A DNA stretch of 64,000 nt, taken from the NCBI GenBank assembly GCA_029548865.1, contig JAKPMO010000015.1, forward strand, positions 10,482 to 74,481. The letters run 5' to 3'. The number at the start of each line of letters is the position of its first letter. Within the stretch, counting starts at the first letter, position 1. The notes beneath the pieces are model-generated. The model was not told where the DNA came from, did not search any database, and was given only the letters and a program-made list of their open reading frames with translations. This DNA is from Caldisericota bacterium (GTDB lineage Bacteria > Caldisericota > Caldisericia > JAAYUI01). Positions 19,960-39,077 of this stretch are shown in pieces. A program made the position numbers and the translations under genes.

Positions 19960-22900
19960 CTAGTAGTATCTGGTCATCGTTATCGTCTTCTCGTCGCCGT
20001 TCCACTGCACCTCTGCGCCAAGCGCCTCGGCTATGAACCTGAACGGGAGGACTGTCCTGCCGTCTTTTATCAACGGCGGCTGTTCAAGCTGGGAGATCTT
20101 TCCATTCACAATGGCGACCTTCGAGCCGATTGTCATCATGATCAGGTCCTTGCCAAGGGTTATGGTCACCTGCTTGACCTGGGCATTCCAGTCCACTTTT
20201 GCGCCAAAGGCCTGGGCAATCGCCCTGACAGGCACAAGTGTCCTGCTGGTTTGCGGGTCAACATAAGGTGCCACATCGAGCTTGCTTATCTGGCCATCGA
20301 CAAGCATAACATCGTTTCCTATCTTCATCTGAACCAGCTTTATCTGCCAGTTGTACAGCTCAAGGGTCGGCCTGGACTGGTTGCCAAGGGCATCGGTTGC
20401 CTCAAACTTGAATGTGTTTTTGCCAAGCACAAGATCGAGTGTGACCACAAACTTGCCCGGCCCGACTTCGATGATTTTTCCATCAATGGCCAGCTTTGCT
20501 TTCTCGCTGGCATTGCCTTCAACCTCAACCTGCTTTGCATTCACAAGCTTTGTTTTCGGCTGGACAAATTCAACCACTGGCGGGGTCGTGTCTTTTGTGA
20601 TGGTGATCTTCTTGGAAATCTTTGTGCCAACAGGATTGGCGGCAATGACTTCGATTTCGTTTACACCTTCCTTGAGTGTGACAGTGACAAAGAACACGCC
20701 ATCAGCGCCAACGCTCACCGGGTTTCCACCAACAGAGACCACTGCCTCGGAGTTTGTCTTGCCCCTGATTGTTATCTGGTCTTCTTTTGTAAGAGATGGC
20801 ACCTCTTCAATCTCAAGAGGCGGCGGGGCGACAGGTGAAACAACTTCTATTACCTGCGGGTTCACCGTTATGTATGTTCCGCTGTCCAGCCTGGCGACTA
20901 TCTTGCCTGGCTTTGTCGGTAGGACATCAAATTCAACTTCACCCTTTGGCCCTGTCTTGGCCTCCATCATGACGCCTGCTCCTTGCACCGTTACAGTGAC
21001 ATTGGAGAGTGGCGCCCTGGAGGCAACGTCTTCAACCGTGACGGCGATCTTCTTCTGGAGTCCGGGGTAGAAGGTGCCGGCATAAACAACATTGAGGCTT
21101 GCGCCCTTTGCAACATCAAACTCAAGCGACTTGCGGGCTATGACAACGTCTTCCCCGAATGTGGCCTTTGCCTTATAGCTGAGGGTTGCAACCGATGTGC
21201 CGGTGTTGCTTGTCGGCGTGTAGTGGACAATGGCCTCGGAGGCCTTTGGGTCAACCTTGCTCTGGGTGGTCTCGACGCTGGTTTTTACTTCAGACTTTGC
21301 GCCCACGCTTGCGACTTCAATTATTCCACCAGGCTTTATCGGGTCCGTTTCCTTCTGACATGCTGGCGTCACCCTTGCCACAAAAACATTGTCGGTGCCA
21401 TAGGCAAGGTCGTAATTGGAAGGCGACAGGAACCCTGTGGAAAGCTCATCGCCGACGTTCTGGTCATAGAGCCTTATAACAGGCTGCTTTATCGGAACAT
21501 TGGTTACTGTCGGGGTGTCCCAGTCGAGTGCAAATGTGCCATCGCCCTTGTACCTGAGGAGCGGATTGAAGGCCATCGACTGTGATCTTGGGGCATCGCC
21601 GGCAACATCTCCCTTGATGACCGATGCCTTGTTGGCACCGAGCAGGCCGCCAACCATAAACACCTGGTCAGCAAAGACGTAGAAGGTAACATTTCCATTT
21701 TCATCCGGGTTGAGCGAATCCTTGTAGTCAATCCTCGAATCACCGTTGAAATCAGAGAAGAAGTAGTTGCCTGCGATCTCGGAGTTGTACACGCAACCCT
21801 TGCCCCAGCTCTTCAGGTCTATTGTTGAGCCATCGAGCTTTGCGCTCGTCTTGCATCTTACAGACATTGGCTTGACAAGGTTTGAAGTGGAAGAGATTTC
21901 GCCTGTTGATGAAATCCCGAACCTGTTGAAATAAGTCAATTTTTCCGGATCAGCGCCGGCGTCAAGGACAAGGAACGGGGTAAACCTGATAAAATCTGTC
22001 GAAGAGCCATACTTGCCCGGCAGTTTTGACGAGCCCTTGAGCAGCTGGCCCTGTGCGTCCTTGAGTGTTGCAACAACCTTGTAAACGCGGCGGTCAAGGC
22101 CGGTCATGCAGGCCTCTGGTTCCTCCGGCCACTTCATTGTGACAGCATCGCCTGTTGCCACGTTGGTTATCGAATAGGTAACCTTTGGTCTTGCGACCTT
22201 GATTGAACCTACACCCCAACTCTTGTAGTCGGACGAGCGTACTTTTATCTGTATTTCACCCTCGTCATTGGCCACAAAACCTGTGAACTTGTATATGCCT
22301 TTGGAGGCCTGCGAGAAATCGTAGCCTATCGGCTTGAACTCGCCAAACAGGTGCTCATTGTCCGATATTGTGCCATCTTTGTTGCGCAGTGAGGTCACTG
22401 TCCAGTAATAGGCACCAACACGTTCCGGTCTGGCATCAGATATGAAGCTGACTGCCTCTTCCGGCTTCAGCTTCCCACCCTTGGTTAGGTCGACCGGCCT
22501 GCCGTTTATGTCCTTTATGGTAAAGGTCAGTGGCTGGTTCGAATTGACAACCTCGGGGGAAACGCCCGCAGTCACAATGCCTGGATTGACTTCAATGATG
22601 ATGTTGGGGTCCTTTGATACCCCGCCACCTGGCTCCGGATACATGCTTACCTGGCCGGCAAGGTAAACCTCGTGCGAGTAGTACTGCCTGGTTCCAGGGA
22701 CGTTCCAGAGAGGGGCAAAGCTCCTGTCGTTGTTATCATCATAATATTTGTAAACGGTCAGATTGACCGGCAATCTTTCGTCCTCTGCAATAACATGGTC
22801 ATTGTTGAAATCAAGGCCGGCATCTTCAATCCTGCAGCCGTTTGAAAGGCTCATGTCAAAGACATACCTGCCGTTGTTGCGCTGATAAGTCCTTGCATCA

Positions 22901-25900
22901 ATGATGCCGCCCACCCAGCTGTTGGTCGCCAGGTTGTAGGCGCCAATGAGCTCGGTTTCGTAGGCATCAAAAGAAATTCTTCCGTCACCGTTCAGGTCCA
23001 TGTCACTGCTGAAGGCGCCAGCCGAGCCGGAGCCAACAGAGGATGACGGGCCGTTTGTCACCCAGCCATCGCCTGCGCCAAAGAAAACGTTGCCGCCCAT
23101 CTGCTGGAGGACACCCCTGTCCTGCCAGACATAGGCCATTGCATCGTTGCATTCCCTGACCACCTGGATGTCTTCCCATTCGGTGATTTTGACATCAAGG
23201 ACGTTGTCGGCAATGATTCCGAGTGTCCCGGGTGCACCTTCTATGTGGAGCCCGTGGACCGGGATTCCCTGTATCCTGTACTCCTGGCAGCAATCTTCCC
23301 AGATCCTTGACTGGCCGTTTGCCAGCTTGACTTCGATCCTTATGACACCTCTGTCAACCGGGATTATCTCGTCAAAAACAAACACGTTGCCATTGACCAT
23401 CGAATAGTCCAGCCTTCTGCTCTGGAGGAGCCTCTGGTTGGCCTGCTGGTAGACATAGCGGTCCTTGAATCCAGGGTTTATGATCCTGGTGAAGTCTTGC
23501 GGGGCAAGCTCGTAGTCTCTCCAGTTGGTCTGGTCAACCACAATCCTGCCAGAATAGTCATACTGTACTGGCACATTCCTGAGGCCATTGTATGTATAGT
23601 CGGTGATCGGGAATCTTGGCGTCATGAATGGCCCGGTTATTTCTATCCACTGTATCTTGTGGTCGCTGTCTGTTGCATTGAACGAGAGGAACTCGCTCCT
23701 TGCATTTGTGAGCATAAAGAAAAGACCATAATCTGTGAGAGGCAGGAACTCTGTTCCAAGCTTCCACACCTGGTCGCGGAATATGGCAGGATATGCGTTC
23801 CTTCCGTCCCCCATTCCACCTTGCACCCTGATTGGGTGTGTCTGTCCACCAGGATATGCCCTGAATTCCCTGACAAGATTTGAAAGAACAGGGTCATAAG
23901 GTGACTGTATCTGGGAGGCCGGGGGTGGCATCCTGGACAGGGCACCAGAGCCAGAGGTGTAGTTGACGCTGGAGTACTGGAGGGCGTGGTCAATTGCGGT
24001 AAATTCGACGAAATTGATGTCTCCATAACCACCGGAGCCACCACCCCCGCCGCCTCCTCCTCCACCACCGCCACCACCTCCGCCTCCACCGCCTCCTCCA
24101 CCGGAGGCAGTTGGCGGGATGACGTGGACACCACAATAGTCGGTGCCCTTGGCAGGCGAGGTGATAAAGTATGGTGGGTGGGTGATTGTGCTGTTGTAAT
24201 CCCAAAGTGCATTATCAGTGTGCACCCTTACATTCAGGCTGGAGGTGCGGTCTGGTGGCCAGCAGGCCACCATTATGCTTCCACCTGGATCGGCCCATGG
24301 GGTCGTCTTGTATGTGGTGACAAAGCATGGCACACCATACGTTTCAATGACTGGCAAATTGACGCCGTCAAACTGGCCCCATGTGTCGCCTTTGGTCACA
24401 ACACCCATTTTTTCGAAGCCCTGGCCACAGATGTCGCATTCTGCAAATCTTCCAGAGCAGTCTATATCAACAAGACTGCCTGAATTGATATTGCCCTGTG
24501 TCGGCCCAACAACAGTGTCTTCCTGGTCAAGTGCGCCAATGGCACCAATGCCTGGCGTCGGGCTCTGGTTGTCGTTCCAGGCCCAGTAATAGTATGTGCC
24601 ATCCTTGTTGACCTGGACTATGTATCTGTTTGTGCCAGTGCCAGCGGTAAACATCCAGTCGATGCCGGCCCCTGTGCAATTGTAGTAGGCAATAATATTG
24701 CCTGCAGAAGCCGTGGTTGAGATGTTGACGCCATTGAGGTCATTCACATCATATGGGTTGTCAAAATCTTTGAGGGTCAAAACAAAGTTCGGGTAGCGGG
24801 TCGAGATGTTTGTAAGACAGACGGTGCTGCAGTCAAAATACATGTCTTCCGGCTCCACCGTGAACTCTTTTGCCAGGTAGCAGTCATAGTTGTTCGGAAT
24901 AATGGTGTTGTTCAGGATCTGCGGGGAAGGAACAACCCAATATCCGTAAGTTCCATCTGGCGGGCCTCCCCAACCAATGTCTTGTGGTTTGCCAGTACCC
25001 TTTTCATAATAAACCTCTATAAGATATGGGTGAATCCTGCCAAATTCGTCGCAAGAGCCTTCATAGGGAGTTATCTGGACAGTGGCTCTTGGGCGATCTT
25101 TGGTTATCGTTCCAGCAACGTTTCTCTGGCCTGAGGCATCAGTCAGCACTATGTAGGCTATTCTGCCTTCGTCAGGCGCCGGGTTCATTGTCAAATTGAC
25201 TTCCGAGGTCTGTTCGACCTTGAACGGTCTCGAGACATTCACCTGCACAGGTGCAACACCCGGCAGGACCTCCATGTCCATGAAGCGGAAATTGCCGCAC
25301 CTTCCAACAGTTATACCAGAAATCGGATAGCTCCTTATGTAAAGCTCAGGGCCGGCAACAACCGTTCCGCACTGATAGGTGTTGCCATTCTTGTTGACCA
25401 CCGTCAGACGAACGTCACCGGCAGTTACGGAGTTGGAAAGATCATTGTCCTGATAAATCCATTCACCCTCTTCAAACTCGTTGTTATTGTTGGCATCAAA
25501 CCAGCCAACGTTCGTGAATGGACGAATAATATAGCCATTATCGACATCACCGGCTGAAACATACGAGCCAGCCTCATAGGTGACTATAGCTCCACCAACA
25601 CTAAACGTGACGGTGGTCATACGCTTGTCGCCAGGGTTGACGATGTCGTTCATGAACGGGTCCTGGGCGGTGTTGAGGTTGTCATATATCGGCTCGCCAC
25701 AGCCAAAACCGGTTCCGCCGCTGTCGTAATACCTGAAGCTTGCCGGGAAGGGTTTTAGTGGGAGGCCGGTATCGGAATCATTCACTCCTGAATTTGAGGC
25801 GCCAATGAAATCCTCACAGGCATACAAGGCCTTGTAGTCATCAGAAAGGTTTTGGGCAAAGCACTGACCTTGCGGGTTGTTGATATTGTTTTCACCAGAA

Positions 25901-26784
25901 TCCCTAAATATCTCAATGCCTACGTAGCTCCTGTAAGACGGCTTAACATTGAAAAAAGTGGTTGCCGGGACCTGAAAATCCAGGCCAGTAGGGCCAAGCA
26001 CGGTTGATTTCTGGATTCTCTGCGATCTTCTGAGTGTCGGGTTTTCAGGGTCAAAGATTGATGCAGCGGTAACGGCCGGATTGACGCCTTCCCACATATC
26101 GGTTTCAACCGAGAGGTTGTAGGAGGTGTTCGGATCGCAAGATGCAAGGAAGGTCTCTGACATGACAAGAGCCATTCCATTGCCAGGAAGCGCAGCCTGC
26201 CCCAACTTGAAAAGCCTCCCTGAAAAATTGCGCGGGAAGGTGTATGGGCCATGTTGATGGCTGATCGGCGTGAACCAGTAGCCCTTGTTGTGGAAGAAGT
26301 TTGCATAGTCGCCGACCCTATATGGGCCCTGTGTGTTGTTGGCCGGAGTATTGTCTGTCTTGAAGTTGTAGTCGTAACACTGACCTGGCGGGTCTGGTCT
26401 TGCTCTTTCGGCAGCATTGTGGAAATAGCCGTCCGGGTCAAACCAGATGTTGCCGTTTGAGTCCAGGATGCAGTTCATCTTGTCTTTTTCAGTGGACTGC
26501 CCGCCTGCACCAATAACGGTAAGATAAACTTCCGACCAATACCTTGGCTGGGACGGCATCGGAAATTGCTGCCTGCCCCACCAGGTGGAAATATCGCCGG
26601 AAGTCCACGGAACGACCCTGCCGGAGAGTGGCTGGCCGCTCCTGTCCTGTCCAAGCGGAGACCACCTGACTACTGCAAAAAGTATGTTTTTTGTTTCGGC
26701 ATAAGCCTGTGGTATTTCGCCAAAAAACGGAACCACGGTGAGCGCCACCGCGAGCGTTAGCATTGTAGCCAAGAGCTTTCTCAT
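19960..26784 (-). CDS. Giant secreted surface protein (~2275 aa). Large conserved N-terminal body shared with the paralog at 56852-64000, a 24-Gly tract, Ca-binding-like DxDxDG loops, C-terminal Ig-like (Big) domains and two copper-amine-oxidase N-terminal (CAO-N) type wall-association domains.
   Basis: GAAAGGAG-N8-ATG at 26784 gives the signal peptide MRKLLATMLTLAVALTVVPFFGEIPQAYA. C-terminus LVPVRAIAQAFGAKVDWN...GRTVLPFRFIAEALGAEVQWN fits CAO-N repeats. DMDLNGDGRISFDAYE is EF-hand/dockerin-like. Long stretches are alignable with the second giant ORF. Confidence 0.8.
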   Translation of the reverse strand: MRKLLATMLTLAVALTVVPFFGEIPQAYAETKNILFAVVRWSPLGQDRSGQPLSGRVVPWTSGDISTWWGRQQFPMPSQPRYWSEVYLTVIGAGGQSTEKDKMNCILDSNGNIWFDPDGYFHNAAERARPDPPGQCYDYNFKTDNTPANNTQGPYRVGDYANFFHNKGYWFTPISHQHGPYTFPRNFSGRLFKLGQAALPGNGMALVMSETFLASCDPNTSYNLSVETDMWEGVNPAVTAASIFDPENPTLRRSQRIQKSTVLGPTGLDFQVPATTFFNVKPSYRSYVGIEIFRDSGENNINNPQGQCFAQNLSDDYKALYACEDFIGASNSGVNDSDTGLPLKPFPASFRYYDSGGTGFGCGEPIYDNLNTAQDPFMNDIVNPGDKRMTTVTFSVGGAIVTYEAGSYVSAGDVDNGYIIRPFTNVGWFDANNNNEFEEGEWIYQDNDLSNSVTAGDVRLTVVNKNGNTYQCGTVVAGPELYIRSYPISGITVGRCGNFRFMDMEVLPGVAPVQVNVSRPFKVEQTSEVNLTMNPAPDEGRIAYIVLTDASGQRNVAGTITKDRPRATVQITPYEGSCDEFGRIHPYLIEVYYEKGTGKPQDIGWGGPPDGTYGYWVVPSPQILNNTIIPNNYDCYLAKEFTVEPEDMYFDCSTVCLTNISTRYPNFVLTLKDFDNPYDVNDLNGVNISTTASAGNIIAYYNCTGAGIDWMFTAGTGTNRYIVQVNKDGTYYYWAWNDNQSPTPGIGAIGALDQEDTVVGPTQGNINSGSLVDIDCSGRFAECDICGQGFEKMGVVTKGDTWGQFDGVNLPVIETYGVPCFVTTYKTTPWADPGGSIMVACWPPDRTSSLNVRVHTDNALWDYNSTITHPPYFITSPAKGTDYCGVHVIPPTASGGGGGGGGGGGGGGGGGGGGGGSGGYGDINFVEFTAIDHALQYSSVNYTSGSGALSRMPPPASQIQSPYDPVLSNLVREFRAYPGGQTHPIRVQGGMGDGRNAYPAIFRDQVWKLGTEFLPLTDYGLFFMLTNARSEFLSFNATDSDHKIQWIEITGPFMTPRFPITDYTYNGLRNVPVQYDYSGRIVVDQTNWRDYELAPQDFTRIINPGFKDRYVYQQANQRLLQSRRLDYSMVNGNVFVFDEIIPVDRGVIRIEVKLANGQSRIWEDCCQEYRIQGIPVHGLHIEGAPGTLGIIADNVLDVKITEWEDIQVVRECNDAMAYVWQDRGVLQQMGGNVFFGAGDGWVTNGPSSSVGSGSAGAFSSDMDLNGDGRISFDAYETELIGAYNLATNSWVGGIIDARTYQRNNGRYVFDMSLSNGCRIEDAGLDFNNDHVIAEDERLPVNLTVYKYYDDNNDRSFAPLWNVPGTRQYYSHEVYLAGQVSMYPEPGGGVSKDPNIIIEVNPGIVTAGVSPEVVNSNQPLTFTIKDINGRPVDLTKGGKLKPEEAVSFISDARPERVGAYYWTVTSLRNKDGTISDNEHLFGEFKPIGYDFSQASKGIYKFTGFVANDEGEIQIKVRSSDYKSWGVGSIKVARPKVTYSITNVATGDAVTMKWPEEPEACMTGLDRRVYKVVATLKDAQGQLLKGSSKLPGKYGSSTDFIRFTPFLVLDAGADPEKLTYFNRFGISSTGEISSTSNLVKPMSVRCKTSAKLDGSTIDLKSWGKGCVYNSEIAGNYFFSDFNGDSRIDYKDSLNPDENGNVTFYVFADQVFMVGGLLGANKASVIKGDVAGDAPRSQSMAFNPLLRYKGDGTFALDWDTPTVTNVPIKQPVIRLYDQNVGDELSTGFLSPSNYDLAYGTDNVFVARVTPACQKETDPIKPGGIIEVASVGAKSEVKTSVETTQSKVDPKASEAIVHYTPTSNTGTSVATLSYKAKATFGEDVVIARKSLEFDVAKGASLNVVYAGTFYPGLQKKIAVTVEDVASRAPLSNVTVTVQGAGVMMEAKTGPKGEVEFDVLPTKPGKIVARLDSGTYITVNPQVIEVVSPVAPPPLEIEEVPSLTKEDQITIRGKTNSEAVVSVGGNPVSVGADGVFFVTVTLKEGVNEIEVIAANPVGTKISKKITITKDTTPPVVEFVQPKTKLVNAKQVEVEGNASEKAKLAIDGKIIEVGPGKFVVTLDLVLGKNTFKFEATDALGNQSRPTLELYNWQIKLVQMKIGNDVMLVDGQISKLDVAPYVDPQTSRTLVPVRAIAQAFGAKVDWNAQVKQVTITLGKDLIMMTIGSKVAIVNGKISQLEQPPLIKDGRTVLPFRFIAEALGAEVQWNGDEKTITMTRYY
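24018..24117 (-). repeat. GGN-codon microsatellite-like tract encoding G24SGG inside the giant protein
   Basis: Plus strand reads ccaccggagccaccacccccgccgcctcctcctccaccaccgccaccacctccgcctccaccgcctcctccaccggagg. The spurious Arg/Trp-rich ORF 23990-24205 is a frame artefact of this tract. Confidence 0.7.
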
Positions 26785-26909
26785 CTTGAAACTCCTTTCG
26801 ATGCATTCATGGCTGATTTGCTTCAAATACACGAAATCTTGGGGTCAAGTTCAAAATTGGGGAGGGTGCTGATGTCTTGATAAAAAATAGAATCTTTTTT
26901 TGAAGACAA

Positions 26910-26944
26910 ACAAAAAAGGCGGGGGCAACCCCGCCTTTTTTGTT
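26910..26944. terminator. Bidirectional rho-independent terminator (downstream of htrA)
   Basis: AAAAAAGGCGGGGGCAACCCCGCCTTTTTTG. Confidence 0.65.
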
Positions 26945-26968
26945 CCAGAAGGTACTTATTGGTGATGG

Positions 26969-28285
26969 CTATTCCGCAGCAGCACCAAGTTTAACGTTAA
27001 AGGTCATCTCTCTTCCATCCCTGCTGACCCTGATCTTGACGACATCTCCCACTTGATGGTTCCTTACCTCAACAAGGAGTCCTTCAAAATCTGTAACTTC
27101 CTTTCCATCTATTGCGGTGATGATATCACCCCTCTGTATTCCTGCTTCCTGGGCACCACCCTTTTCAACCACTGCTATGTATGCACCTGACGCATACTTC
27201 AAACCAAGCTGCGAAGAGAGGTCCTGTGTGAGTGTTGCGCCCCTGACACCAAGCACTGGCCAGCCCACCTTGCCGAACTTGATGAGGTCTTTGGCAACTC
27301 TTGACGCAACATTTGAGGAGACTGCAAAACCTAGATTTTGTGCACCCTCAATAATGACTGTATTGATTCCGACCACCTTGCCATCCAGTGTCACAAGTGG
27401 CCCACCGGAATTGCCTGGGTTGATGGCGGCATCCGTCTGAACAACTCCGACCAGCATACGGCTTTTATCTACCTGTATGTTTCTGGCAAGGGCCGAGATA
27501 ACGCCCGTTGTGACTGTATTTTCAAACTTGTATGGGTTGCCTATTGCAACGACCGGCTGACCAACTTTCAATTTTGAGGAGTCCCCGAGCTCGGCCATTG
27601 GAAGATTTTTCTCTTTCACCTTGAGGATAGCAAGATCGGAAAGTGAATCTGTGGCGACAATCTGGGCCTCAAAATTCCTCTTGTCTATGAGGTGGACAAC
27701 GATCTTTTGGCCATTCTCCACAACATGGTTGTTGGTGAGGATAAAACCTTGTTCATCAGTCCAGGTATTTTTTATTATGACACCAGAACCTGCCGCCTGC
27801 TCGACCCTTACTTGAGGCTGCTGTCTGGCAAATGGGTTGACGTTATTGTCGTTGTTGAAGAACTGCTCAAAAGGATTGTCAAACTGCAATATGGAGTTTG
27901 TAATTTCCTTGTCAACAGTTATCGAGACAACAGCAGGAGATACTTTATTTACCACATCAACAACACCGTCGTAGAACATCTGCTGATTTATCGGGGTTTC
28001 CGGCACCGGCTGCTGGATCACCACGGTACTATTTTTGTTGTCTGCAAGCCTGTATCCCAGGAACCCTGAGAGGCCACCAAAAAGCACCGAGAATACAAGA
28101 GCAAGGGCAATAATTCCGCCCCATCTCGGGGTGTTCTGCCTGTCTGCCTGTCTGCCACCATTTATATTCATCTGCGAATACTGCGGTTTCTCCTCATGAG
28201 CTGGTTCCTTGTACTCAGTATCAATAGTTTCCGGCTCTTCAGTTTTATCTATCGGGGTATAGTTATACTCTTCCTCAAATAACAT
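26969..28285 (-). CDS. htrA: HtrA/DegP-family serine protease, membrane-anchored, with C-terminal PDZ domain
   Basis: AAGGAGG-N8-ATG. N-terminal TM GGIIALALVFSVLFGGLSGFLGY. Catalytic motif GNSGGPLV. PDZ-like C-terminus. Confidence 0.85.
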   Translation of the reverse strand: MLFEEEYNYTPIDKTEEPETIDTEYKEPAHEEKPQYSQMNINGGRQADRQNTPRWGGIIALALVFSVLFGGLSGFLGYRLADNKNSTVVIQQPVPETPINQQMFYDGVVDVVNKVSPAVVSITVDKEITNSILQFDNPFEQFFNNDNNVNPFARQQPQVRVEQAAGSGVIIKNTWTDEQGFILTNNHVVENGQKIVVHLIDKRNFEAQIVATDSLSDLAILKVKEKNLPMAELGDSSKLKVGQPVVAIGNPYKFENTVTTGVISALARNIQVDKSRMLVGVVQTDAAINPGNSGGPLVTLDGKVVGINTVIIEGAQNLGFAVSSNVASRVAKDLIKFGKVGWPVLGVRGATLTQDLSSQLGLKYASGAYIAVVEKGGAQEAGIQRGDIITAIDGKEVTDFEGLLVEVRNHQVGDVVKIRVSRDGREMTFNVKLGAAAE

Positions 28286-28298
28286 CTATTCTTCCTCC

Positions 28299-29408
28299 TT
28301 ATAGCTTTCTTATGACAAGCCTCTTGTCCAGTATCAGGTTTCCAAAACCGTCTATCTTTATGGCTTGTTCAGGGTAAAAGTTGACCTGGTAAGGCTTTCC
28401 GGCATCACCAGTTGGCTTGACAAGGGCCACCATCTTTCCTTCAATCATTTTTTGCGCCTGCACCTCTGAAATCCCCATCTCTACAAGGGAATTTGTTTTT
28501 TCCGGCCAGAGGGGCATCAAAAGCAACAGTGTGAAGCAGAGCACTGTAGCAAGAGATTTGTGCGCCACAAGTTTTTCTTTCTTTGGTTCGAGCAAAGCCA
28601 TGGTTCTCTCCTCGAGTCCGCCAGAAGAAAGATTTGCGGCCACTCTTACCGGTGAACAGAGCTTTGCAACACCTATAAGTGCTTCCGCAAGCGGGAAGGG
28701 TGAACCAATCGCCTTTATTGCAAGGCGGTCAGTCTCCTTTTCAAGCTCCAGCGAATAGCTCTTCCAGGCAAACTTTCCTGGAAGATACGAACAAAGTGCA
28801 ACATTGAGCGTCCAGAGCCACATGTTGATTATGTCTCTGCGCCTTATGTGGGCCATCTCATGGGCAACAACTGCATCAAGTTGCTCTTTTGAAAGCCCCT
28901 TTATCAAATTTTCTGAAATGTAAACAGAGTTTAGGGTCGAGAAGGCCTCGGAACCTGAATTGCCAAGAAAAAAAGTTGTGCTCCTGGTGTCTTGCCCGCC
29001 AAATCCACGAGAAAGCGATTCCCTGAAAGATTTTGGTGCGACACGGTACCCTCTGGTCCTTGAGGACAGCAGAAACAGCCCAAACCCAAGGCGGAAAGTA
29101 ACAAAACCGATTACGATCCACGGCGCAGCGATGAGAAGATAATGCCAGAAGGTCGGCTCCAGCGTGACATTGGCTCCGTAAATAATACCCTCTGTGGAAA
29201 AGAGCTTTGTTGGTGTGAGGGTGAGTTTTACTGTCTCCGGAACAAGACTGGAGAGCATTATGAAGCCGGCAGAAAACCCAAAGAGGGACGCCAGTGACAC
29301 AAAAATTGACCAGCCCAGCCCCTTCGGGGAGAGCTTCCTGCCAAGCAGGAACCACAAGAACGGCCACGCCACAACCAGATAAAGGGCAAAAACAAGACTA
29401 TTTTCCAT
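28299..29408 (-). CDS. BlaR1/MecR1-like M56 family membrane metalloprotease-transducer lacking a penicillin-binding sensor domain
   Basis: Multi-TM N-terminus. HEXXH zinc motif VVAHEMAHI. 369 aa with only a ~70-aa extracytoplasmic C-terminal tail. Confidence 0.8.
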   Translation of the reverse strand: MENSLVFALYLVVAWPFLWFLLGRKLSPKGLGWSIFVSLASLFGFSAGFIMLSSLVPETVKLTLTPTKLFSTEGIIYGANVTLEPTFWHYLLIAAPWIVIGFVTFRLGFGLFLLSSRTRGYRVAPKSFRESLSRGFGGQDTRSTTFFLGNSGSEAFSTLNSVYISENLIKGLSKEQLDAVVAHEMAHIRRRDIINMWLWTLNVALCSYLPGKFAWKSYSLELEKETDRLAIKAIGSPFPLAEALIGVAKLCSPVRVAANLSSGGLEERTMALLEPKKEKLVAHKSLATVLCFTLLLLMPLWPEKTNSLVEMGISEVQAQKMIEGKMVALVKPTGDAGKPYQVNFYPEQAIKIDGFGNLILDKRLVIRKL

Positions 29409-29814
29409 TTTGTTTCCTCTCCTTTATCATACGCTCAAGCATGTCCAATTTGTTCGAGTCCGAATTCTCAAGCATTTCCAGAAAATTTGCCATGACAGGC
29501 TCGGTAAGGCTGCCAATGACCGAGTTAAGTACCTTGCACGTGCTTTTAACGTCCATCTCTTCTTGGGTGACTGACGGCATGTAAACATAGCTCTTGCCGC
29601 ATTTTTCCCTTTTGAGGACACCCTTTTTGGAGAGCCTGTCGCAGGTTGTCATGATGGTCGTGTAGGCATGATCGGTCGAAAGGTGGTCTACTATTTCCCT
29701 TACAGTTGCCTTTCCGATGGCGCAGCAGGCCTTGTAGACCTCGTACTCCAGGGAGCCGAGAACCAGCCCTGCACCGACCCTGTTTGACGTTACCCTTATA
29801 ACTTTGTCTTCCAT
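29398..29814 (-). CDS. BlaI/MecI/CopY-family winged-helix transcriptional repressor
   Basis: LGSLEYEVYKACCAIGKATVREIVDHL matches the penicillinase-repressor N-terminal DNA-binding domain. Overlaps the M56 gene by 11 nt. Confidence 0.75.
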   Translation of the reverse strand: MEDKVIRVTSNRVGAGLVLGSLEYEVYKACCAIGKATVREIVDHLSTDHAYTTIMTTCDRLSKKGVLKREKCGKSYVYMPSVTQEEMDVKSTCKVLNSVIGSLTEPVMANFLEMLENSDSNKLDMLERMIKERKQNGK

Positions 29815-29880
29815 GATGGTGGGTATTTTACAATCAATAGTACTACAGTCAATAGTATAAGATTAAGGAATGGTTTCGTG
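29815..29880 (-). promoter_or_regulatory. Candidate promoter/operator of the blaI operon: 9-bp direct repeat TCAATAGTA x2 flanking the palindrome TAGTACTA
   Basis: Plus strand TTTTACAATCAATAGTACTACAGTCAATAGTATAAG lies immediately upstream of blaI. BlaI/CopY operators are TACA/TGTA-type dyads. Assignment is by inference only. Confidence 0.35.
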
Positions 29881-29953: not shown

Positions 29954-31288
29954 TTACCTGATATAGTAATCCTCTCCAATCCTCGGTATTTCATTTTGGG
30001 GTTGCACCTTGAAGAGCTTGCCGTCCAGGTATTCCATCAATACTCTTTCGACTTTTGTTTTTGCTTCATTATGGATACCCGCAAAAATATAGGCTTTGTC
30101 TGGATGAGAAGCTCTTATGAAACAGCCATCAGAAAACGTATTTTGATCAAACTCTTTTATTTTTTTCACTTCACCACTGTTCATGTCCAGCCTGAGCAAA
30201 TAATTCCTGTATCTTGGTGCAACTGCCTCCCCAAAACCTGGTTTCATGTAACCGGCAAAGATAAAAACAGAATCTTTCGAAGTTGAAACTATTGCATATT
30301 CACAGGTTTTATATTCACTATCTTCAAAATTTTTCAACTTTTCCTGGAATATCCATATTTTTTTACCACTCATGTCAGCAATAGCATATGTATTGCGTTC
30401 ACAATTTACATTTGTGATGTTTGGTATATCACTACTTTCCGGGTATGTTTTGTCATAGGGCCCAACATAGCCAACAATGCCGGTGGTTTGATCGGCAAAC
30501 GTGACCCATGGTCTAATGGGTTTCACTCTATCCGTTGTGGTAATGCTTAGATCGTCCAGGGAAAGTCTGACTCCACGGGCATGGGCATAAGGCACCTGTG
30601 CATGAGTAAGGTCCATTGTCACAACCCTTGGGTCGCAATATTTTCCACTGGTGCCAAAGAATTTGTTTTCTTTTGTCTGTTCAACAAGCAACAATTCTTT
30701 TTCCCCCCAATAAACAGGAAAGTAAAGAACACCACTTTCTTTTACTAGCTCCCCAAGATCATCATGGTAAAAAGATTTTCTATATCTGGCACCAAGTTTT
30801 TTTGATGAACCGTTTTTCAGGTTATACAAAATGGTATATTTGGCCGATATTTCTTTTAGCAATTTACCGTCTTCTTTGTGTGGTATTTCAAAGTAAAACC
30901 CGGTCCCTGCAGAAAGGAGGGCCCATTGTTTGTCAGGTGAAAGCCCCTCCAGGCTACATGTGTGCGGACCCTCCAGATAGAAATAAAATGCACTGCCAAA
31001 ATTTGTCGCCACAGTGTATTTTAGCAGGCCCTCCATGTAAGGGTCCCTGATTCTTGGCAACTTTACCTTAAATGCCGACGTGAAATCACTCCAGTCAAGC
31101 TGGGCGGAATAGATGATAATCTCTCTTTTTCTCATCTGGGTTTCCCAGTCATCGCCATAGCCAAGGGTATAAAAACGTTTCTCTCCCTGTGGCGTAATCT
31201 GCCCTATCCCCTCGTTTGAGGCCCCGCAACCGACAAGGAACACCAAAATCAGACCTATTGCATAAAAAACTCTGGCCATTTTCTTCAT
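29954..31288 (-). CDS. Lipoprotein, Tyr-rich, possible beta-propeller (unknown function)
   Basis: MKKMARVFYAIGLILVFLVGCGAS lipobox. 444 aa, moderately low GC. Confidence 0.55.
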   Translation of the reverse strand: MKKMARVFYAIGLILVFLVGCGASNEGIGQITPQGEKRFYTLGYGDDWETQMRKREIIIYSAQLDWSDFTSAFKVKLPRIRDPYMEGLLKYTVATNFGSAFYFYLEGPHTCSLEGLSPDKQWALLSAGTGFYFEIPHKEDGKLLKEISAKYTILYNLKNGSSKKLGARYRKSFYHDDLGELVKESGVLYFPVYWGEKELLLVEQTKENKFFGTSGKYCDPRVVTMDLTHAQVPYAHARGVRLSLDDLSITTTDRVKPIRPWVTFADQTTGIVGYVGPYDKTYPESSDIPNITNVNCERNTYAIADMSGKKIWIFQEKLKNFEDSEYKTCEYAIVSTSKDSVFIFAGYMKPGFGEAVAPRYRNYLLRLDMNSGEVKKIKEFDQNTFSDGCFIRASHPDKAYIFAGIHNEAKTKVERVLMEYLDGKLFKVQPQNEIPRIGEDYYIR

Positions 31289-31432
31289 TAAGCAACCCCC
31301 AGAAAAACTTTTTATCTGCTCAGAACCAGTCAAGAATTATAGCAGAGAAGAAGGGGTTTTTGTATATTTTTGTAATGATGTTGTTCGAGAGTGTTGAAAA
31401 AATCTATATATTTCGGGGTTATCGACTAAACA

Positions 31433-32623
31433 TCACACAATCAGCATATCTCTGGCAATCGCAGAGGCCGCATTCGGCATGCCTGCCTCAAGCGATAGCG
31501 CCTGAATGGCAACCATCGTGGCCTGGGTGTTGGCGTCCTGCAAATCAGGGCGTTCTGCACCAGAATGGTTGAATGCTCCAAACATCTTTGGGTCTGGTTG
31601 CCTGTTGGCAAGCTCCCCGCAAAGCCTTTTTGTTGCCTTGTCTATTTTCAGGCAGTAGCCCTCCGGAAGCATCCCCAGGGCCTCGATGAGCCTTCCGGCC
31701 CTGATAAAATGGGCACACACATCGGCCCTTTCGTAGTTCTCGCCCTCGCCCACGAGCATCGGGAAACCACCATCCTGGAGCTGGCAGTCTGCAACAAAAC
31801 GCCATGTCTTCAGTGCAGCTTCAAGCATCCTCTGCCTGTCCAGCATCACCGAACCAACAAGGAGTGCGTCAACAGCATGCATTGTTGGAAGCAGATGGAC
31901 CGATCTTCCAGTTGAGGTTATTGCCCCTTCCTGCTTTTCCTCTGCGCTCTGACACGCCCAGTCAAGCAACCTTATTGCATGCGTTCTGGCCCTTTCAGAC
32001 CTTATTGCCTGCGCGTAGTTCATGAGCCCTATGGCAATTTTTGCTAGGTACGGCTGGATGTCGGCGCGCCAGTTCGATGTGTCCTGTATGACTGTTGCAC
32101 TGTCAACATCAAGGAGAGGATAAGGAACGCCGTTTGGCCCCATCATGCGCTGGGTTATAAAATCAACTGCCTTTGAGGCCACAGAAAGGCAAAAAGAGTT
32201 GTCAGTTTCATAATGCAGATGCACAAAAGCATTCAGGATCATTGCCACATCAAGCGTTTTTATTTGCCTGATCTGGGAGTCATTTTGGGGATTGATGCCC
32301 ACCATAAACCCACCCTCATCAGCCACCCATGCCTTGTCAAGCAACCAAAAGGCCGCCTGTTCTGTCGGGTTTTGCCTCGGCCAGCCCGGCAACATCCTGT
32401 CCAGAAAAAGCATGCAGGTGATTGCATTTCCAGTGGTGGTAGAAAACATGATGGAATGGCAGTGCTCAAGTGTTGAATACCAGCCGTAAAATCCACCAGC
32501 ATGGGGCCCTTCCTGCTCCTGGATGCCTGATTGAGAGAGCCAGGCGGACGCAGAAAGAAGGGCCTTTATTGCATCACCATTTGCGCGCCCGCTTGTCCAC
32601 GAGAGCGCATTGGCAAGGGTCAT
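31433..32623 (-). CDS. Cytoplasmic alpha/alpha-toroid-type protein (prenyltransferase/squalene-oxidase-repeat or terpene-cyclase-like; low confidence)
   Basis: No signal peptide. Repeated Q..DGGF / GGFYGW-like motifs (ADCQLQDGGFPM, HAGGFYGWYS). Start ATG at 32623 overlaps the stop of the upstream PQQ gene (ATGA). Confidence 0.4.
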   Translation of the reverse strand: MTLANALSWTSGRANGDAIKALLSASAWLSQSGIQEQEGPHAGGFYGWYSTLEHCHSIMFSTTTGNAITCMLFLDRMLPGWPRQNPTEQAAFWLLDKAWVADEGGFMVGINPQNDSQIRQIKTLDVAMILNAFVHLHYETDNSFCLSVASKAVDFITQRMMGPNGVPYPLLDVDSATVIQDTSNWRADIQPYLAKIAIGLMNYAQAIRSERARTHAIRLLDWACQSAEEKQEGAITSTGRSVHLLPTMHAVDALLVGSVMLDRQRMLEAALKTWRFVADCQLQDGGFPMLVGEGENYERADVCAHFIRAGRLIEALGMLPEGYCLKIDKATKRLCGELANRQPDPKMFGAFNHSGAERPDLQDANTQATMVAIQALSLEAGMPNAASAIARDMLIV

Positions 32624-34752
32624 GGGTTGAAGACCATCCTTACTGTTTTTGTCTCGGCAATCCACACTACATCGGCGCCAAAGGCCTCGGCTATTGCCCT
32701 GAACGGAACCATTGTTCTGCCGTCTTTTATCTCTGGCGGGGAGGGGATGGCTTTTATGAGATCATTGACGTCCATTTCAGGACGACCTACCCAGAGCTTG
32801 ACCCTATTGTCAAACCTGTTTATCTGTATCTCTTTCTTGTCGGCAATCCATTTGACGTCGGCACCAAAGGTCTCGGAGATAAACCTTATCGGAACCATTG
32901 TTCTACCTTTGCTTGTTACATACGGGGCAACGTCCATGTCAACAGGCCTGCCATTTACAAAAGCCGTGTTGTCGCCAATGACCATTGAGATCTCTATCCT
33001 GGGCTCGGTTTCGACCTTTACCATGACGGAAACCTGCTGGCAAACATCATTTTTCGTGGCAATGACAATCCTTCCCTGGGCCTCGTTGCCTGCCGGTATT
33101 CTACTGCCATTGAGTGTGATCTTTAGAAGGAACTTGCGATTTATCGAGGTGAAAGAGACTGGTTCTACATCAATCCACCTGTCTTCACCCATCACTATGC
33201 CGGAGACTTCCTCATCGGTATCAAAAGAAAGGGTCAGCGTCTTTGAGACTTCCTCACCCCTTTTGATGAACCCAAAATTGAGTTCGGATGGAGAAACATT
33301 CAGGCATGGTGGTGCTGGTGAAACAATGCGCCACCTGATTATCATGGTGAACTCGCCGCCATTTGAAGATATCTTGAGCAACGCCTGGTGGTTGCCATAA
33401 TCAAGCCCACCGGGATCAAGCGTTACCCTGATTTTTTGCTCAGATCCATTGCTTATATCAAAAAATTCGGTCGCACTGAAAGAAAGATGTTTCTCATCAG
33501 TAACCATTTTTCCTTCGAGTTTCGTCTGGAACTGGTCTTTTCTGGCATTTCTGATGATGATGTCCCTGAAAGGTGTTGTTCCATGGGTCACAATACCAAA
33601 ATCAATTTCTTGCGGCTCAACTTCAAGAATTGGCCCTGGCTGGAAGACCTGGACTGTTCCACCCCATGTGCCGACATAAACTGCCTCGCAGTAGATTACA
33701 GGCGACGCCTCAATAATGTATCCAAGATTGCCCTTCCAGGCGAGTTGGCCCGTTTTCCAGTACAGACAGTAGAGATTCTGGTCATCCGACCCAAAGAAAA
33801 CGTATTTTCCGCCGACAGCCGGGGAGGAGTAGTTCCAGTTTTCCGTCCTGAAATTCCAGACTTCCTCGCCGGTATCCTGGTAGAGGCAACGGACCATCTT
33901 GTCGTATCCAGTTGGAATTATGAGTTTGTCTTCAACAAGTGCTGGCGTTGCCCAGACGTGGGCACCAACATCTATCTTCCAGATCTGCCTGCCATCATCG
34001 GACAGACAATAGAACTGACCGCCATCTGTGCCAAAAAATATCTTTTCGTTTCTGACAGAACAGGCCGCAAAAACCTCAGAAGGGGTCTCAAATTCCCAGG
34101 TCAGCCTGCCATTTTCGGCATTGAGGCAATAAAGCTTCTTTGAATATGAACCGATGAGGATAGTCTTATTGTGCTCATTGTAGGTCGGCGAGGCATCAAC
34201 AAAAGCACCCGTATGGAATGCCCAGACTTTCTGGCCAGAAAGGACGTCAAGGCAATAAACCTTCATGTCCCTTGATGCAAAATAGACCTTCCCGTTAACA
34301 ACAAGGGGTGACGATCTTATGATATCGCCAGTTTTGAATTTCCAGACTTCATTTCCAGTTTCAAGGTTCAGGCAATAGAGGTAGCCGTCATCCGAGCCAC
34401 AGATTGTTACTTCTCCAAAAATTGTTGGTGACGAGCGGACCTTGTTTCCAGTCAGATAGTTCCACCTTATCCTGAATGAGTGAGTGTCGTAGCAATATAT
34501 CCTCATGTCATCAGAACCAACCACGCTGTACCTGTCGGTCATTGCAATTGAGCTGTGGATGGCGGCCGTGGCTTTGTAGGCCTCTCCAACAAGAAGCGGC
34601 GGTGCCGCCTGGTTCGTTGTCAGACAAGACCTCGAAGGATCATGGTTAAACATTACCCAATCATCGCACTTTCCTTCTTCGGCCATGGCAAAAACAGGCA
34701 TCTGGAGAGCTAGTATAATAGCCAACATTGCTGTAATCAGTCTGGATTTCAT
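32620..34752 (-). CDS. Secreted PQQ/BamB-like beta-propeller protein with Ig-like (DUF1573/ASH-type) domains and two C-terminal CAO-N wall-association domains
   Basis: Signal peptide MKSRLITAMLAIILALQMPVFAMA. Many blades of the form YCL..E.G...W. C-terminus VAPYVTSKGRTMVPIRFISETFGADVKW...GRTMVPFRAIAEAFGADVVW. Confidence 0.7.
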   Translation of the reverse strand: MKSRLITAMLAIILALQMPVFAMAEEGKCDDWVMFNHDPSRSCLTTNQAAPPLLVGEAYKATAAIHSSIAMTDRYSVVGSDDMRIYCYDTHSFRIRWNYLTGNKVRSSPTIFGEVTICGSDDGYLYCLNLETGNEVWKFKTGDIIRSSPLVVNGKVYFASRDMKVYCLDVLSGQKVWAFHTGAFVDASPTYNEHNKTILIGSYSKKLYCLNAENGRLTWEFETPSEVFAACSVRNEKIFFGTDGGQFYCLSDDGRQIWKIDVGAHVWATPALVEDKLIIPTGYDKMVRCLYQDTGEEVWNFRTENWNYSSPAVGGKYVFFGSDDQNLYCLYWKTGQLAWKGNLGYIIEASPVIYCEAVYVGTWGGTVQVFQPGPILEVEPQEIDFGIVTHGTTPFRDIIIRNARKDQFQTKLEGKMVTDEKHLSFSATEFFDISNGSEQKIRVTLDPGGLDYGNHQALLKISSNGGEFTMIIRWRIVSPAPPCLNVSPSELNFGFIKRGEEVSKTLTLSFDTDEEVSGIVMGEDRWIDVEPVSFTSINRKFLLKITLNGSRIPAGNEAQGRIVIATKNDVCQQVSVMVKVETEPRIEISMVIGDNTAFVNGRPVDMDVAPYVTSKGRTMVPIRFISETFGADVKWIADKKEIQINRFDNRVKLWVGRPEMDVNDLIKAIPSPPEIKDGRTMVPFRAIAEAFGADVVWIAETKTVRMVFNP

Positions 34753-34955
34753 GAGAGAGATATTAGCACAATAAATTAAATCAATCAATTGAACGCAGAC
34801 TTGGACAAGGTCAATTTATTGAAAAATCTACATTAAAATTACAGTGTTTTCTCCAATCAAAATAAAGAAATCCCATATTTATGCACAAATTGTTATAAAC
34901 AAAAATACGCCGAAGGTTTCCCCCTCGACGTATCTGAAGCTTTGTGTGTTCCCGG

Positions 34956-37900
34956 TTATTTTGCACCAAAACAGTAGAGTTTGTTGTCAAAAGAGCCTGC
35001 CAGTATATGGCCGTTTGAAATGGCAGGTGATGAAACGGCTCCTTCTGTTTTGAAAGACCATATCTTCTCGCCAGTGTTGAAATCAACGCAGTAGAAATAA
35101 TAATCCTGGCTGCCAAACCAGACCTTGTCACCACAAACTGCCGGGCTGGTTACCCACCCTTCCGCCCTGAACGTCCAAAGCTTTTTGCCAGTTTCAGAAT
35201 CCAGGCAATAAAGGAAGGAATCAGTCGCACCCACAAACACCCTCCCGTTCCAGATCGCAGGTGAAGAGTAGTGGAGGACACCGCCTGCCTCAAACATCCA
35301 CACCTGGGAGCCAGTCTGGGCGTCCAGGCAATAAAGCTTCTTGTCATCGGAACCAATGTAGACCTTTCCATTCCAGATGGCAGGCGTTGAGGTTATCATA
35401 TAGCCAGTCTTAAAGTCCCATATTTTCTTGCCAGTTAGCGCGTCCAGGCAATAAAGGCTCTTATCCTCACATCCAAAATATATCTTGCCTTCCCAGAGCG
35501 CAGGCGATGAATCAACCTGGTCGGGTGCCTCAAACTTCCAGAGCAGTTTCCCTGTGGTGGCATCAAGGCAGTACATAAAATGGTCCTTTGACCCAAAATA
35601 TACCCTGTTTTCCCACACCACTGGGGAGGAGAATGTTGGGCCCTGGGACATAAATGACCATATCTTGTTACCTGTTTTTGCGTCCAGGCAGTAGAGGTTT
35701 CTGTCATAGGAACAGGCATAGACCCTTCCGGAATCGACTGCCGGAGAGAACACCCTGCCTGTAGCGGTGAAGTCCCATATCTTTGACCCACTCGCCAGAT
35801 CGAGGCAATAGAGATGATTGTCGTCCGAACCGACAAAAACCCTGCCATCGGAGATGGTTGGCGAAGAATAGATGTCATCACCTGTTTCAAAGCTCCAGAT
35901 AAGTTCCGTCTTTGCCGGGTCAGGCCCGCAACCATCAGGAACAACGCCATTTCTCTGGAGGTTGCCCCTGTACTGGCTCCACTCGCAAGTCACTTCTTCC
36001 GGTTTTGCGATCTTGAGCACTTTCACTTTTCCGGTGTCAGAAAGTTCAAGGTAAGTAGCGGTTACGGTGCATTCCCCATCCTTGATGGCAGTAAAGAGGC
36101 CGTTCTGGTCAACTGACCCGATTTCAGCATCAGAGCATTCCCAGCTTATCTGGATATCTTTCATCTCCTGGTCGAACTGGTCAAAAACCGTGGCCGTAAA
36201 CTGCTGGGTCTCGCCTGGTTTCAGGACTGATTCCTTCGGCTGGACAACAAGTCTGGCCGGATATGGTTTTTCAGGCTCGACAGTGTCATCATCAACAAAG
36301 CAGTAGAGGAAGCCATCGGTGTTTGTGAAGAGTATCTTTCCTCCACAAACTGATGGATACACAAAATCCTTCCCGCCTTTTACATTGTAGGCAAATTTTT
36401 CCTCGCCTGTAGAAGCGTCAAGCAACTTGATCAATCCACCGGTATCGCCAAGAACCACCCTATTCCCGTAGCAGGCCACGGAATAAAACGATGAGCCTTC
36501 CATTGGCACATCATAAAGCACCTTGCCATCCACAAGCGAGAGGCAGAACATCCTCTTGTTTGTGGAAATGGCGAAAATCCTGCCGTCCCTTATCGCCAGA
36601 GGGCCAAAAACTGCCTTGTCTATTTCACTCGTCCAGATGGCGTCACCGGAACGGGGATCAACACACCTTACAATGCCGTCCCATGTGGAGAAATAGATCC
36701 TGCCATCAAAATATGTTGTTTCACCGTCAAAATCGTTCTTGCTGTCGATTGTCCACAAAATATCGCCTGTGTTTGCATCAAAGCAGTAGTAGGTGTCATC
36801 ACTGGACCCGATAAATACTTTGCCATCGGCAACAGTCGGTGATGACTCGAAATCTATCTTGTTCGGGTTCTCCCATACTAGCTTGCCAGTCAGGACGTCA
36901 AGGCAATACAGGGCGTTTTTACCGGAATTGTTTTCGTTGTCGTCACGGACCTTGCCGCAGCCAAAATAAAGCTTTCCCTGATAAATAGTTGGCGATGTCC
37001 TTATCTCTCCGCCAGCCTCAAAAGACCAGAGCTCTTTGCCAGTTTTTGCGTCGAGGCAATAGAGTTTCTTGTCAAATGACGGCGCAAACAGTTTTCCCTG
37101 CCAGTAAACCGGCGTGTAGGCAAGCGCCCCCGATTTGAACTCCCAGATCTTTGCGCCCGTCTCAAGATCCATGCAATGGAACTTGCCGTCCTGGGCGCCC
37201 GCAAAAACCATCCCATCCACAGAAATTGCTTGGGTGGTGAGAGGCGATTTTGCATTGTATTTCCACAATATTTTCAGCTTGTCGGTTTTTGGACCGCAAT
37301 CGGCCTCTGTGGATGAAGTCCTGCTCGGGTCACCGCCAAAACATGGCCAGTCGCAACCCTGCTTTTCAAGGTTCAGCCCCTCGTCATAGACATAGACTTT
37401 TGCCCTTGCAGAGAGCTGGCCGGAAGTGGCAACAATATCAGTCAGCCCTGGCGATTTGGCACCAAAGAGACCGCCATAATCAAGCGTTCCGGTTTTGGGG
37501 TCCGTCAAAGACCAGGTTATTTTCTGGTCTTTCATGACCTCATCATAATTGTTGTAGACTGTGGCAGTAAAAAGTATGCTCTGGCCAGGTTTCAGCACGG
37601 CAAATTTTGGCTTTATGGTCATTTTAACTGGTTTTTCAACACGCGCTTCAAGGCAATAAACGTTGCTGTCGTTTGACCCAAAATAGATCTTTTTATTGCA
37701 GATTACAGGTGTTGACCACACCTCATCCTTTGTTTCAAAAGAAGACAGCTCCTTGCCAGTTTTTGCATCAAGGCAGTAGAGCTTATTGTCATAGGAGCCA
37801 AAATATATCTTCCCTGCACAATATACAGGTGATGAGTTGTTGATTTTTCCGTCTGTTTTGTATTTCCAGGAAAGCTTTTTTGATGATCCGTCAACGCAGT

Positions 37901-38795: not shown

Positions 38796-38842
38796 TTATA
38801 CTCCACTATACGCTAGAGGGATGTATTTTGCCTGTATGTTTT

Positions 38843-39031: not shown

Positions 39032-39077
39032 AATGCCTCCTTTTGGTAATTATAACCAAAAAGGGGCTGGCTTGATA

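Follow-up and report, generated by a model that had tools for sequence, protein, structure and literature searches.

The window analysed here is a 64,000-nucleotide (nt) stretch of Caldisericota bacterium DNA (from an uncultured member of the Caldisericia or Caldisericales; GenBank assembly GCA_029548865.1, contig JAKPMO010000015.1, positions 10,482–74,481), the minus strand of which carries a compact unit (29857–26908) composed of a promoter, three genes and a terminator. The first gene, blaI (29398..29814), encodes a winged-helix repressor of 138 amino acids (aa) from the BlaI/MecI/CopY family; the second (28299..29408) encodes a 369-aa BlaR1-like membrane zinc protease of the M48/M56 clan that lacks a transpeptidase sensor; and the third, htrA (26969..28285), encodes a 438-aa membrane-anchored serine protease of the HtrA/DegP family. 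A previous sequence-only reading of this DNA had described the trio as an operon, and its account of the gene junctions and borders is exact. The blaI gene (29814..29398) overlaps the metalloprotease gene (29408..28299) by 11 nt, and htrA follows 13 nt after the protease stop codon with a ribosome-binding site of its own, AAGGAGG (28294..28300, minus strand), that was read from the sequence and overlaps that stop codon. The bidirectional intrinsic terminator reported to close the unit (26908..26945, both strands) is likewise present; GGCGGGG-TTGC-CCCCGCC lies between an A-run and a T-run, the RNA fold reaches −27.8 kcal/mol (z = −6.3, with 0/200 shuffles equally stable), and the plus-strand side was also recovered in a consensus scan.

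Six Caldisericia-type loci were read in all: the window and the loci L003, L001, L083, L171 and L172, with protease identities to the window of 96%, 49%, 43% and, for both L171 and L172, ~30%. The order blaI–protease–htrA is kept in all six, and the genes flanking the trio differ in L001 and L083. The 11-nt overlap recurs in L003, L001 and L083 and is replaced by a gap of 3–5 nt in L171 and L172, while the distance from protease stop to htrA start is 9–12 nt in L001, L083 and L171. A close relative of the window on a low-coverage contig (L002; 1907 nt, coverage 0.84) was left out of inference; the frameshifts throughout its protease and htrA genes are an assembly-quality artefact, and no pseudogene call was made. 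Transcription of htrA from an independent promoter, which the sequence-only reading had named as the alternative to an operon, was rejected: the 13-nt gap leaves no room, making a promoter in the gene junction unlikely, consensus scans covering the 3′ end region of the protease gene gave nothing promoter-like for the window or L001, and the one weak site that they gave for L083 is no more than chance would produce. From the 11-nt and 13-nt junctions, the strong terminator and the absence of an internal promoter-like site, we infer that blaI, the protease gene and htrA are co-transcribed.

Upstream of blaI, a sigma-70-like promoter (TTGACT–16 nt–TAAAAT, 29825..29852, minus strand; 10/12 consensus matches) is overlaid by a putative operator, the imperfect 17-base-pair (bp) dyad TACTATTGACTGTAGTA (29841..29857, minus strand), which has an 8-1-8 layout, encloses the −35 hexamer and is exact and unique in the window. 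The −35 hexamer, TTGAC(A/T), is central in the dyad, and a bound BlaI dimer would therefore occlude it. The dyad consensus, TACTATTG-N-CARTAGTA, also written TACTATTG-N-CAGTAGTA or, as a search pattern, TACTATTGNNNNTAGTA, is found at all six loci, though protease identity drops to ~30%; TACTATTGAC(A/T)GTAGTACTA is retained in L003, L001 and L083, where the remaining intergenic region has diverged. Among the deepest relatives, the dyad reads TACTATTGACAATAGTA in L171, a perfect 8-1-8 palindrome, and TACTATTGAACATAGTA in L172. The exact form TACTAT-N5-GTAGTA occurs once in the 64-kb window; allowing up to two mismatches, there are seven matches against 1.05 expected, and 0/100 shuffles reach seven. 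Neither the window nor the flanking sequences retrieved for the analysis yielded additional operator copies.

A plausible operator had already been proposed for this region, as a palindrome flanked by 9-bp direct repeats. These elements are real and the operator proposal is strengthened by the conserved dyad over the −35 hexamer, with two corrections: the repeats are longer, forming two 14-nt copies of TACTATTGA(C/T)TGTA at 29857–29844 and 29842–29829 (15 nt apart, 13/14 identical), and the palindrome TAGTACTA is only the junction of these copies. The repeat gives rise to a second, degenerate dyad copy, TACTATTGATTGTAAAA (29826..29842, minus strand), which overlaps the −10 hexamer and is restricted to the window lineage; it is seen in the window and L003 and is not conserved in L001 or L083. 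The arrangement in six-base half-sites that end in CTAT and stand five bases apart is shared with the operator of BlaI_0696 from C. thermocellum, validated by DNA affinity purification sequencing and electrophoretic mobility shift assay (PMC8457756). Comparable promoter arrangements are present in L001 (11/12 consensus matches), L083, L171 and L172. From the end of the −10 hexamer to the blaI ATG the distance is 10 nt in the window and 6–10 nt across the six loci, and a Shine-Dalgarno sequence is absent; the blaI mRNA is therefore probably leaderless, with a putative transcription start just upstream of the ATG.

The BlaI protein matches Pfam Penicillinase_R (PF03965) over profile positions 1–114 of 115 (80.3 bits against a cutoff of 22.6, E = 1.7e-22), and it is 62–69% identical to its counterparts in L001 and L083. 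It can be aligned to MecI (1sd6, 1okr) and BlaI (1sd4) of known structure, with ANF of the query placed over their LNF; the query segment 'vmaNFlem' lines up with 'lvlNFvek' of MecI and 'lvlNFakn' of BlaI. In these systems BlaR1 cuts the N101–F102 bond (PMC9834060), and N110–F111 at the corresponding place is the candidate cleavage site here. The Phe residue is kept in BlaI from all six loci, and the full ANF is also present in L001 and L083. Metal sensing of the CopY type was rejected: TIGR02698 scores 54.2 bits against a cutoff of 121.95, the C-terminal CxCxxxxCxC motif is absent, and the C-terminus, ...ERMIKERKQNGK, is devoid of cysteine. Two further features of the repressor were observed. 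An N-terminal extension of 18 aa precedes the Pfam domain (VIRVTSNRVGAG...) and is kept in L001 and L083, and the winged-helix region contains five cysteines (C30, C31, C58, C72 and C93), not all of which recur in L171 and L172.

Hydropathy and the positive-inside rule yield a topology for the metalloprotease in which two transmembrane (TM) helices lead into an outside loop of 33 residues, after which come TM3, a cytoplasmic domain of basic character, TM4 and an outside tail. The cytoplasmic domain carries the HEXXH motif noted earlier, as H183-E-M-A-H187 (codons at 28848..28862, minus strand), together with E223-K-E-T-D227. In a subfamily alignment of eight representatives at 50% identity (a five-sequence alignment was used for the metagenome scan), H183, E184, H187, E223, D227 and R268 are invariant; the BlaR1 counterparts are H201EXXH, E242XXXD and Arg294 (PMC9834060). 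The AlphaFold2 model of the protease (predicted local distance difference test score, pLDDT, 78; predicted template modelling score, pTM, 0.70) renders the outside loop as a β-hairpin, residues 59–84, resembling extracellular loop 1 of BlaR1. Its best structural matches in the PDB are four cryo-electron microscopy entries of S. aureus BlaR1, including 8EXQ, 8EXS and 8EXP (E = 1.4e-5, 333 aligned columns), with the M48 proteases ZMPSTE24, Ste24 and BepA ranking behind. BlaR1 also gives the longest match of the subfamily profile among PDB sequences (positions 92–301). The predicted structure and topology thus settle the protease as BlaR1-like. In a loop modelled at low confidence (residues 253–261; 28632–28658 on the minus strand for 251–259), Asn259 is invariant and the residue after it is L, F or I (A-A-N-L), which resembles the A-N-F of BlaI. 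By analogy to S283–F284 of BlaR1, this loop may be a candidate autocleavage or pseudo-substrate loop.

The protease ends in an extracytoplasmic tail of 68 aa (residues 302–369; 28302..28505, minus strand), predicted to consist of one helix packed on four strands (pLDDT 72); no known fold was matched by this small α/β tail. The sequence-only reading had assigned a tail of ~70 aa in place of a penicillin-binding sensor, and this stands as to length and as to the absence of a transpeptidase domain (PF00905), which is not present in the protease and is not gained by shifting its start or stop codon. Its description of the protein as sensorless was overstated, as the tail is conserved. All eight representatives are 317–378 aa long, and htrA directly follows the stop codon in those loci for which DNA is available; G312, E315, G324 and P346 of the tail are invariant among the eight, and the last residue is always L, M, F or W. 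The protease is thus one without a known sensor, and the conserved tail may itself be the sensor. The subfamily is small: of 1.84 billion representative proteins, only eight 50%-identity clusters belong to it, and beyond it the E value drops from 1e-56 to 1e-16. An archaellin-like match of TM4 and the tail (phmmer, 9i5h_C, E = 0.32) was taken as chance.

The third gene product has the usual membrane-anchored HtrA architecture, as judged from its sequence: an acidic cytoplasmic N-terminus of 57 aa, a single TM segment (58–76) in agreement with the anchoring reported earlier, a Trypsin_2 domain (117 bits, E = 1.3e-33) and one PDZ domain (PDZ_2, 57 bits, E = 2.4e-15). The motifs TNNH187VV, D217LAIL and GNS293GGP furnish the catalytic residues His187, Asp217 and Ser293. 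TIGR02037 scores 339.5 bits, under the subfamily cutoff of 416, a shortfall that is expected because this HtrA has one PDZ domain.

Taken together, a model emerges in which an operon of the BlaI/BlaR family represses itself, is switched by proteolysis and has HtrA as its cargo; we consider this to be, on balance, the probable function of the locus. A BlaI dimer on the 17-bp dyad around the −35 hexamer would keep blaI, the protease gene and htrA at low expression; in the window lineage, BlaI may also bind the second dyad copy over the −10 hexamer. The BlaR1-like protease would reside in the membrane with its HEXXH/EXXXD site in the cytoplasm, and its β-hairpin loop and 68-aa tail facing outward. 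An extracytoplasmic cue would act on the tail and/or the loop, and the most plausible cue would be the misfolding or jamming of secreted proteins, or envelope damage of another kind, because HtrA is the sole cargo and the genes around the operon include those of very large secreted surface proteins. The activated protease would then cut BlaI in its dimerisation helix, at or beside N110–F111; repression would be lifted, HtrA would be made and inserted into the membrane, and newly made BlaI would reset the switch. We infer the direction of signalling, the cleavage of BlaI and the nature of the signal alike; de-repression of htrA by BlaR1-like proteolysis of BlaI, as originally suggested, is supported by the comparative evidence with the refinements given above.

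Given the membrane anchoring of HtrA beside the protease, a variant of this model, compatible with it, would make HtrA part of the sensor as well: its PDZ or protease domain would bind or trim the protease tail. Misfolded proteins would either titrate HtrA off the tail, in a homeostatic loop after the manner of CpxP and CpxA, or activate it to clip the tail, in a cascade after the manner of DegS–RseA–RseP, and BlaI cleavage would be switched on in both cases. The variant draws on a comparison with 158 generic M48/M56 loci from genomes and metagenomes. Only one of these, L142, has an adjacent HtrA gene; it belongs to a Terriglobales (Acidobacteriota) clade in which a gene for an HtrA with two PDZ domains comes after the M56 gene in four of four distinct loci (L142, L163/L164, L165 and L166/L167), so that the synteny on which the sequence-only reading had proposed a check holds for the trio in six of six Caldisericia and four of four Terriglobales loci. 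The Terriglobales M56 proteins are 408–466 aa long, and their tail runs from a Pro/Ala-rich linker into a conserved module unlike that of the Caldisericia, ~55 aa long and containing two invariant cysteines. Their promoters are built on the plan seen in the Caldisericia, with two TACGAA...TTCGTA dyads over TTGACA and TATTAT and the ATG 6–7 nt past the −10 hexamer. Linkage of M56 proteases to HtrA is, on this sequence comparison, specific to certain clades and has arisen at least twice independently.

Side observations were made on the Terriglobales genes. One and the same blaI gene was called at 305 aa in L166 (3087–4004) and at 164 aa in L167 (3510–4004), and both calls probably start too early, since both predicted starts are upstream of the conserved promoter and ATG. 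In both phyla (the window at 29812–29830, minus strand, and L001, L083, L171, L172, L142, L163, L165 and L167), the −10 hexamer is positioned 6–10 nt from the blaI ATG and a Shine-Dalgarno sequence is lacking, and a leaderless blaI mRNA looks to be shared.

Besides the twofold linkage and the anchoring of HtrA in the same membrane as the protease, two features of the tails speak for a sensory part of HtrA: i) in each clade, the tail amounts to a conserved module of ~55 aa, and ii) the terminal L, M, F or W of all eight Caldisericia-type tails is of the type bound by HtrA-family PDZ domains. The PDZ domains of DegS and DegP prefer such hydrophobic C-termini. The idea could accordingly be cast as a feedback loop that senses unfolded secreted proteins, in which the hydrophobic C-terminus of the tail is a tethered PDZ ligand, free HtrA silences the protease, misfolded clients draw HtrA off or induce it to clip the tail, BlaI is cut, and HtrA is made until the tail is reoccupied; in this closed form we regard it as doubtful. 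The eight tails are related, however, and their shared hydrophobic end does not amount to eight independent observations, and the Terriglobales tails mostly end in T, I or L after a β-strand and so depart from this pattern. A general rule by which a short tail signifies an HtrA partner was rejected, as the genes downstream of three further acidobacterial M56 proteins with short tails (330, 415 and 484 aa) are unrelated and none of the three has an HtrA neighbour. A plain operon of regulator and cargo accounts for the synteny equally well, and we judge an involvement of HtrA in sensing to be rather unlikely.

Several observations weigh against the operon model as proposed, most of which concern the family of the protease. 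Pfam M56 (PF05569) remains below its gathering score (25 bits against 31) and aligns with residues 160–232 only; a search of PDB sequences with the subfamily profile ranks HtpX (3cqb, E = 4.7e-5) and Ste24 slightly above BlaR1; and the Foldseek TM-scores to BlaR1 are only ~0.42, a modest value that a monomer model can be expected to give against a domain-swapped dimer and that is still a caveat. On the repressor side, the putative P1 residue is Asn in the window clade but Gly (EGF) in L171 and L172, leaving the exact scissile bond uncertain, and a search for the inducer of the related CenIR system failed (PMC13492132). At the sequence level, the protease is intermediate between M48 and M56. 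Pfam M48 (PF01435) passes its threshold (34.7 bits against 20.3) over 57 residues around HEXXH, precomputed Pfam matches for relatives list both families, and the NCBI pipeline names most copies 'M48 family metalloprotease' and the others 'M56 family metallopeptidase'. The earlier label of BlaR1 (M56) thus holds for the fold, which matches BlaR1, and is not borne out by Pfam, where M48 and not M56 is above threshold.

These family scores and names would fit an enzyme of the HtpX (M48B) kind, active in quality control beside HtrA, with BlaI released by a ligand, by the redox state of its cysteines or by another protease. E. coli co-regulates htpX and degP under Cpx, and the five cysteines in the DNA-binding domain of window-clade BlaI would suit redox control. 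Likeness to HtpX is nonetheless limited to the active-site segment, and the TM layout, the hairpin, the whole-protein fold and the partnership with blaI follow BlaR1. A blaI gene is found upstream of the protease gene, as an overlapping pair, at 56 of the 79 generic loci in the metagenome set, the Phe of the BlaI cleavage site is conserved, and the repressor has neither the C-terminal cysteine motif of CopY nor, in L171 and L172, all five cysteines. An HtpX-like role is, in our estimate, quite improbable. An indirect response to β-lactams or cell-wall damage, of the kind reported for the transpeptidase-less M. tuberculosis BlaIR, with HtrA clearing damaged penicillin-binding proteins (PBPs), could be argued from the M. 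tuberculosis and M. abscessus BlaR proteins, which have no sensor domain and are still discussed as BlaIR systems, and from the degradation of altered PBP2x by pneumococcal HtrA (PMC12826053), yet it is very improbable given that the operon holds no β-lactamase or PBP gene, the 64-kb window no second operator copy and the protease no transpeptidase domain, and that the transpeptidase-less CenIR and PvmSR gave no β-lactam response (PMC13492132; bioRxiv 10.64898/2026.08.03.742534).

The neighbourhood of the operon is rich in large secreted proteins. Directly after the htrA terminator lies the gene for a secreted protein of 2290 aa (19960–26832, minus strand) that contains more than 20 glycines in a row, a Glucodextran_B domain and, at its C-terminus, a Cu_amine_oxidN1 domain; this gene also follows htrA in L003, and proteins of 2270–2275 aa are encoded at the equivalent position in L171 and L172. 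This protein is a conserved operon neighbour and a candidate HtrA client. Upstream of the operon, a paralogous cluster of large PQQ/β-propeller proteins (32620–41999, minus strand) includes a 722-aa protein (32620–34788, minus strand) with a C-terminal Cu_amine_oxidN1 domain, and several of the propeller proteins carry such a domain; propeller proteins with this domain flank the operon in L001, L171 and L172 as well. Also on the upstream side, a 459-aa protein (29954–31333, minus strand) has an N-terminal hydrophobic segment, matches no Pfam family above threshold and shares 38% identity with a relative in L001, and a 410-aa protein (31433–32665, minus strand) gives a weak, sub-threshold match to a prenyltransferase alpha-alpha-toroid. 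No histidine kinase, response regulator, extracytoplasmic function (ECF) sigma factor, anti-sigma factor or M50 site-2 protease is encoded among the operon genes or their immediate neighbours.

The closest parallels are the BlaI/BlaR1 and MecI/MecR1 systems of S. aureus and B. licheniformis. As in these, a repressor gene precedes the gene for a membrane zinc protease, with the genes overlapping here; the winged-helix repressor has an aligned N-F, the protease has HEXXH, EXXXD and a conserved Arg, four TM helices and an extracellular TM2–TM3 loop, and a dyad operator lies over the promoter, consistent with autoregulation. The systems differ in that the transpeptidase domain is replaced by the 68-aa tail, the β-lactamase or PBP2a cargo by htrA, and the divergon by a single operon; the operator is TACA-N2-TGTA there and of the 8-1-8 type (TAC-N11-GTA) here, and only the protease described here falls below the Pfam M56 threshold.

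BlaR proteins without a transpeptidase domain are themselves already known. In a 2026 survey, only ~6% of M56 proteins have the domain, and the architecture seen most often combines M56 with an unassigned C-terminal region (PMC13492132). Examples without it are C. difficile CenIR, which is linked to the cell envelope, Rv1846c/Rv1845c of M. tuberculosis and BlaIR of M. abscessus (PMC13492132), PvmSR of P. aeruginosa (bioRxiv 10.64898/2026.08.03.742534) and PetR/PetP of Synechocystis. CenIR, BlaIR, PvmSR and PetR/PetP resemble the present trio in pairing a BlaI-family repressor with an M56-type protease that lacks a β-lactam sensor, and in having non-antibiotic roles. None is described with htrA in its operon or regulon, and the tail of the protease described here is shorter and forms a conserved family of its own.

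On the side of the cargo, CssRS, CiaRH, CpxAR and sigma-E likewise combine an output of the HtrA family with a likely input of extracytoplasmic folding stress, and DegS–RseA–RseP also pairs a membrane-anchored, single-PDZ HtrA with a membrane metalloprotease. Those pathways operate by phosphorelay or by degradation of an anti-sigma factor, whereas cleavage of a DNA-bound repressor is proposed here. A December 2025 review of Gram-positive HtrA lists two-component regulators only and never mentions BlaI (PMC12826053), and no BlaIR system whose operon or regulon includes htrA was found in open-access papers and bioRxiv preprints, where co-mentions are incidental. The linkage to htrA is the new element, and the trio probably represents a mode of HtrA induction that had not been described before.

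Around 94% of M56 'BlaR' proteins are without a β-lactam sensor, and the question of what they sense has been in print only since 2026, with the CenIR and PvmSR papers. A clade with HtrA as the only cargo offers a specific and testable hypothesis, namely extracytoplasmic folding or secretion stress, and with three genes, a 17-bp operator and a 68-aa tail the module is small enough to be rebuilt in a model host. If the model is true, repressor proteolysis would join two-component systems and sigma-E in the control of htrA/degP. If feedback between HtrA and the tail were also true, it would constitute a third route of envelope-proteostasis sensing beside two-component systems and anti-sigma cascades, and would answer what at least some sensor-less BlaR proteins detect. 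For the Caldisericia, which are poorly studied and have very few cultured members, the finding bears on how envelope homeostasis may be maintained.

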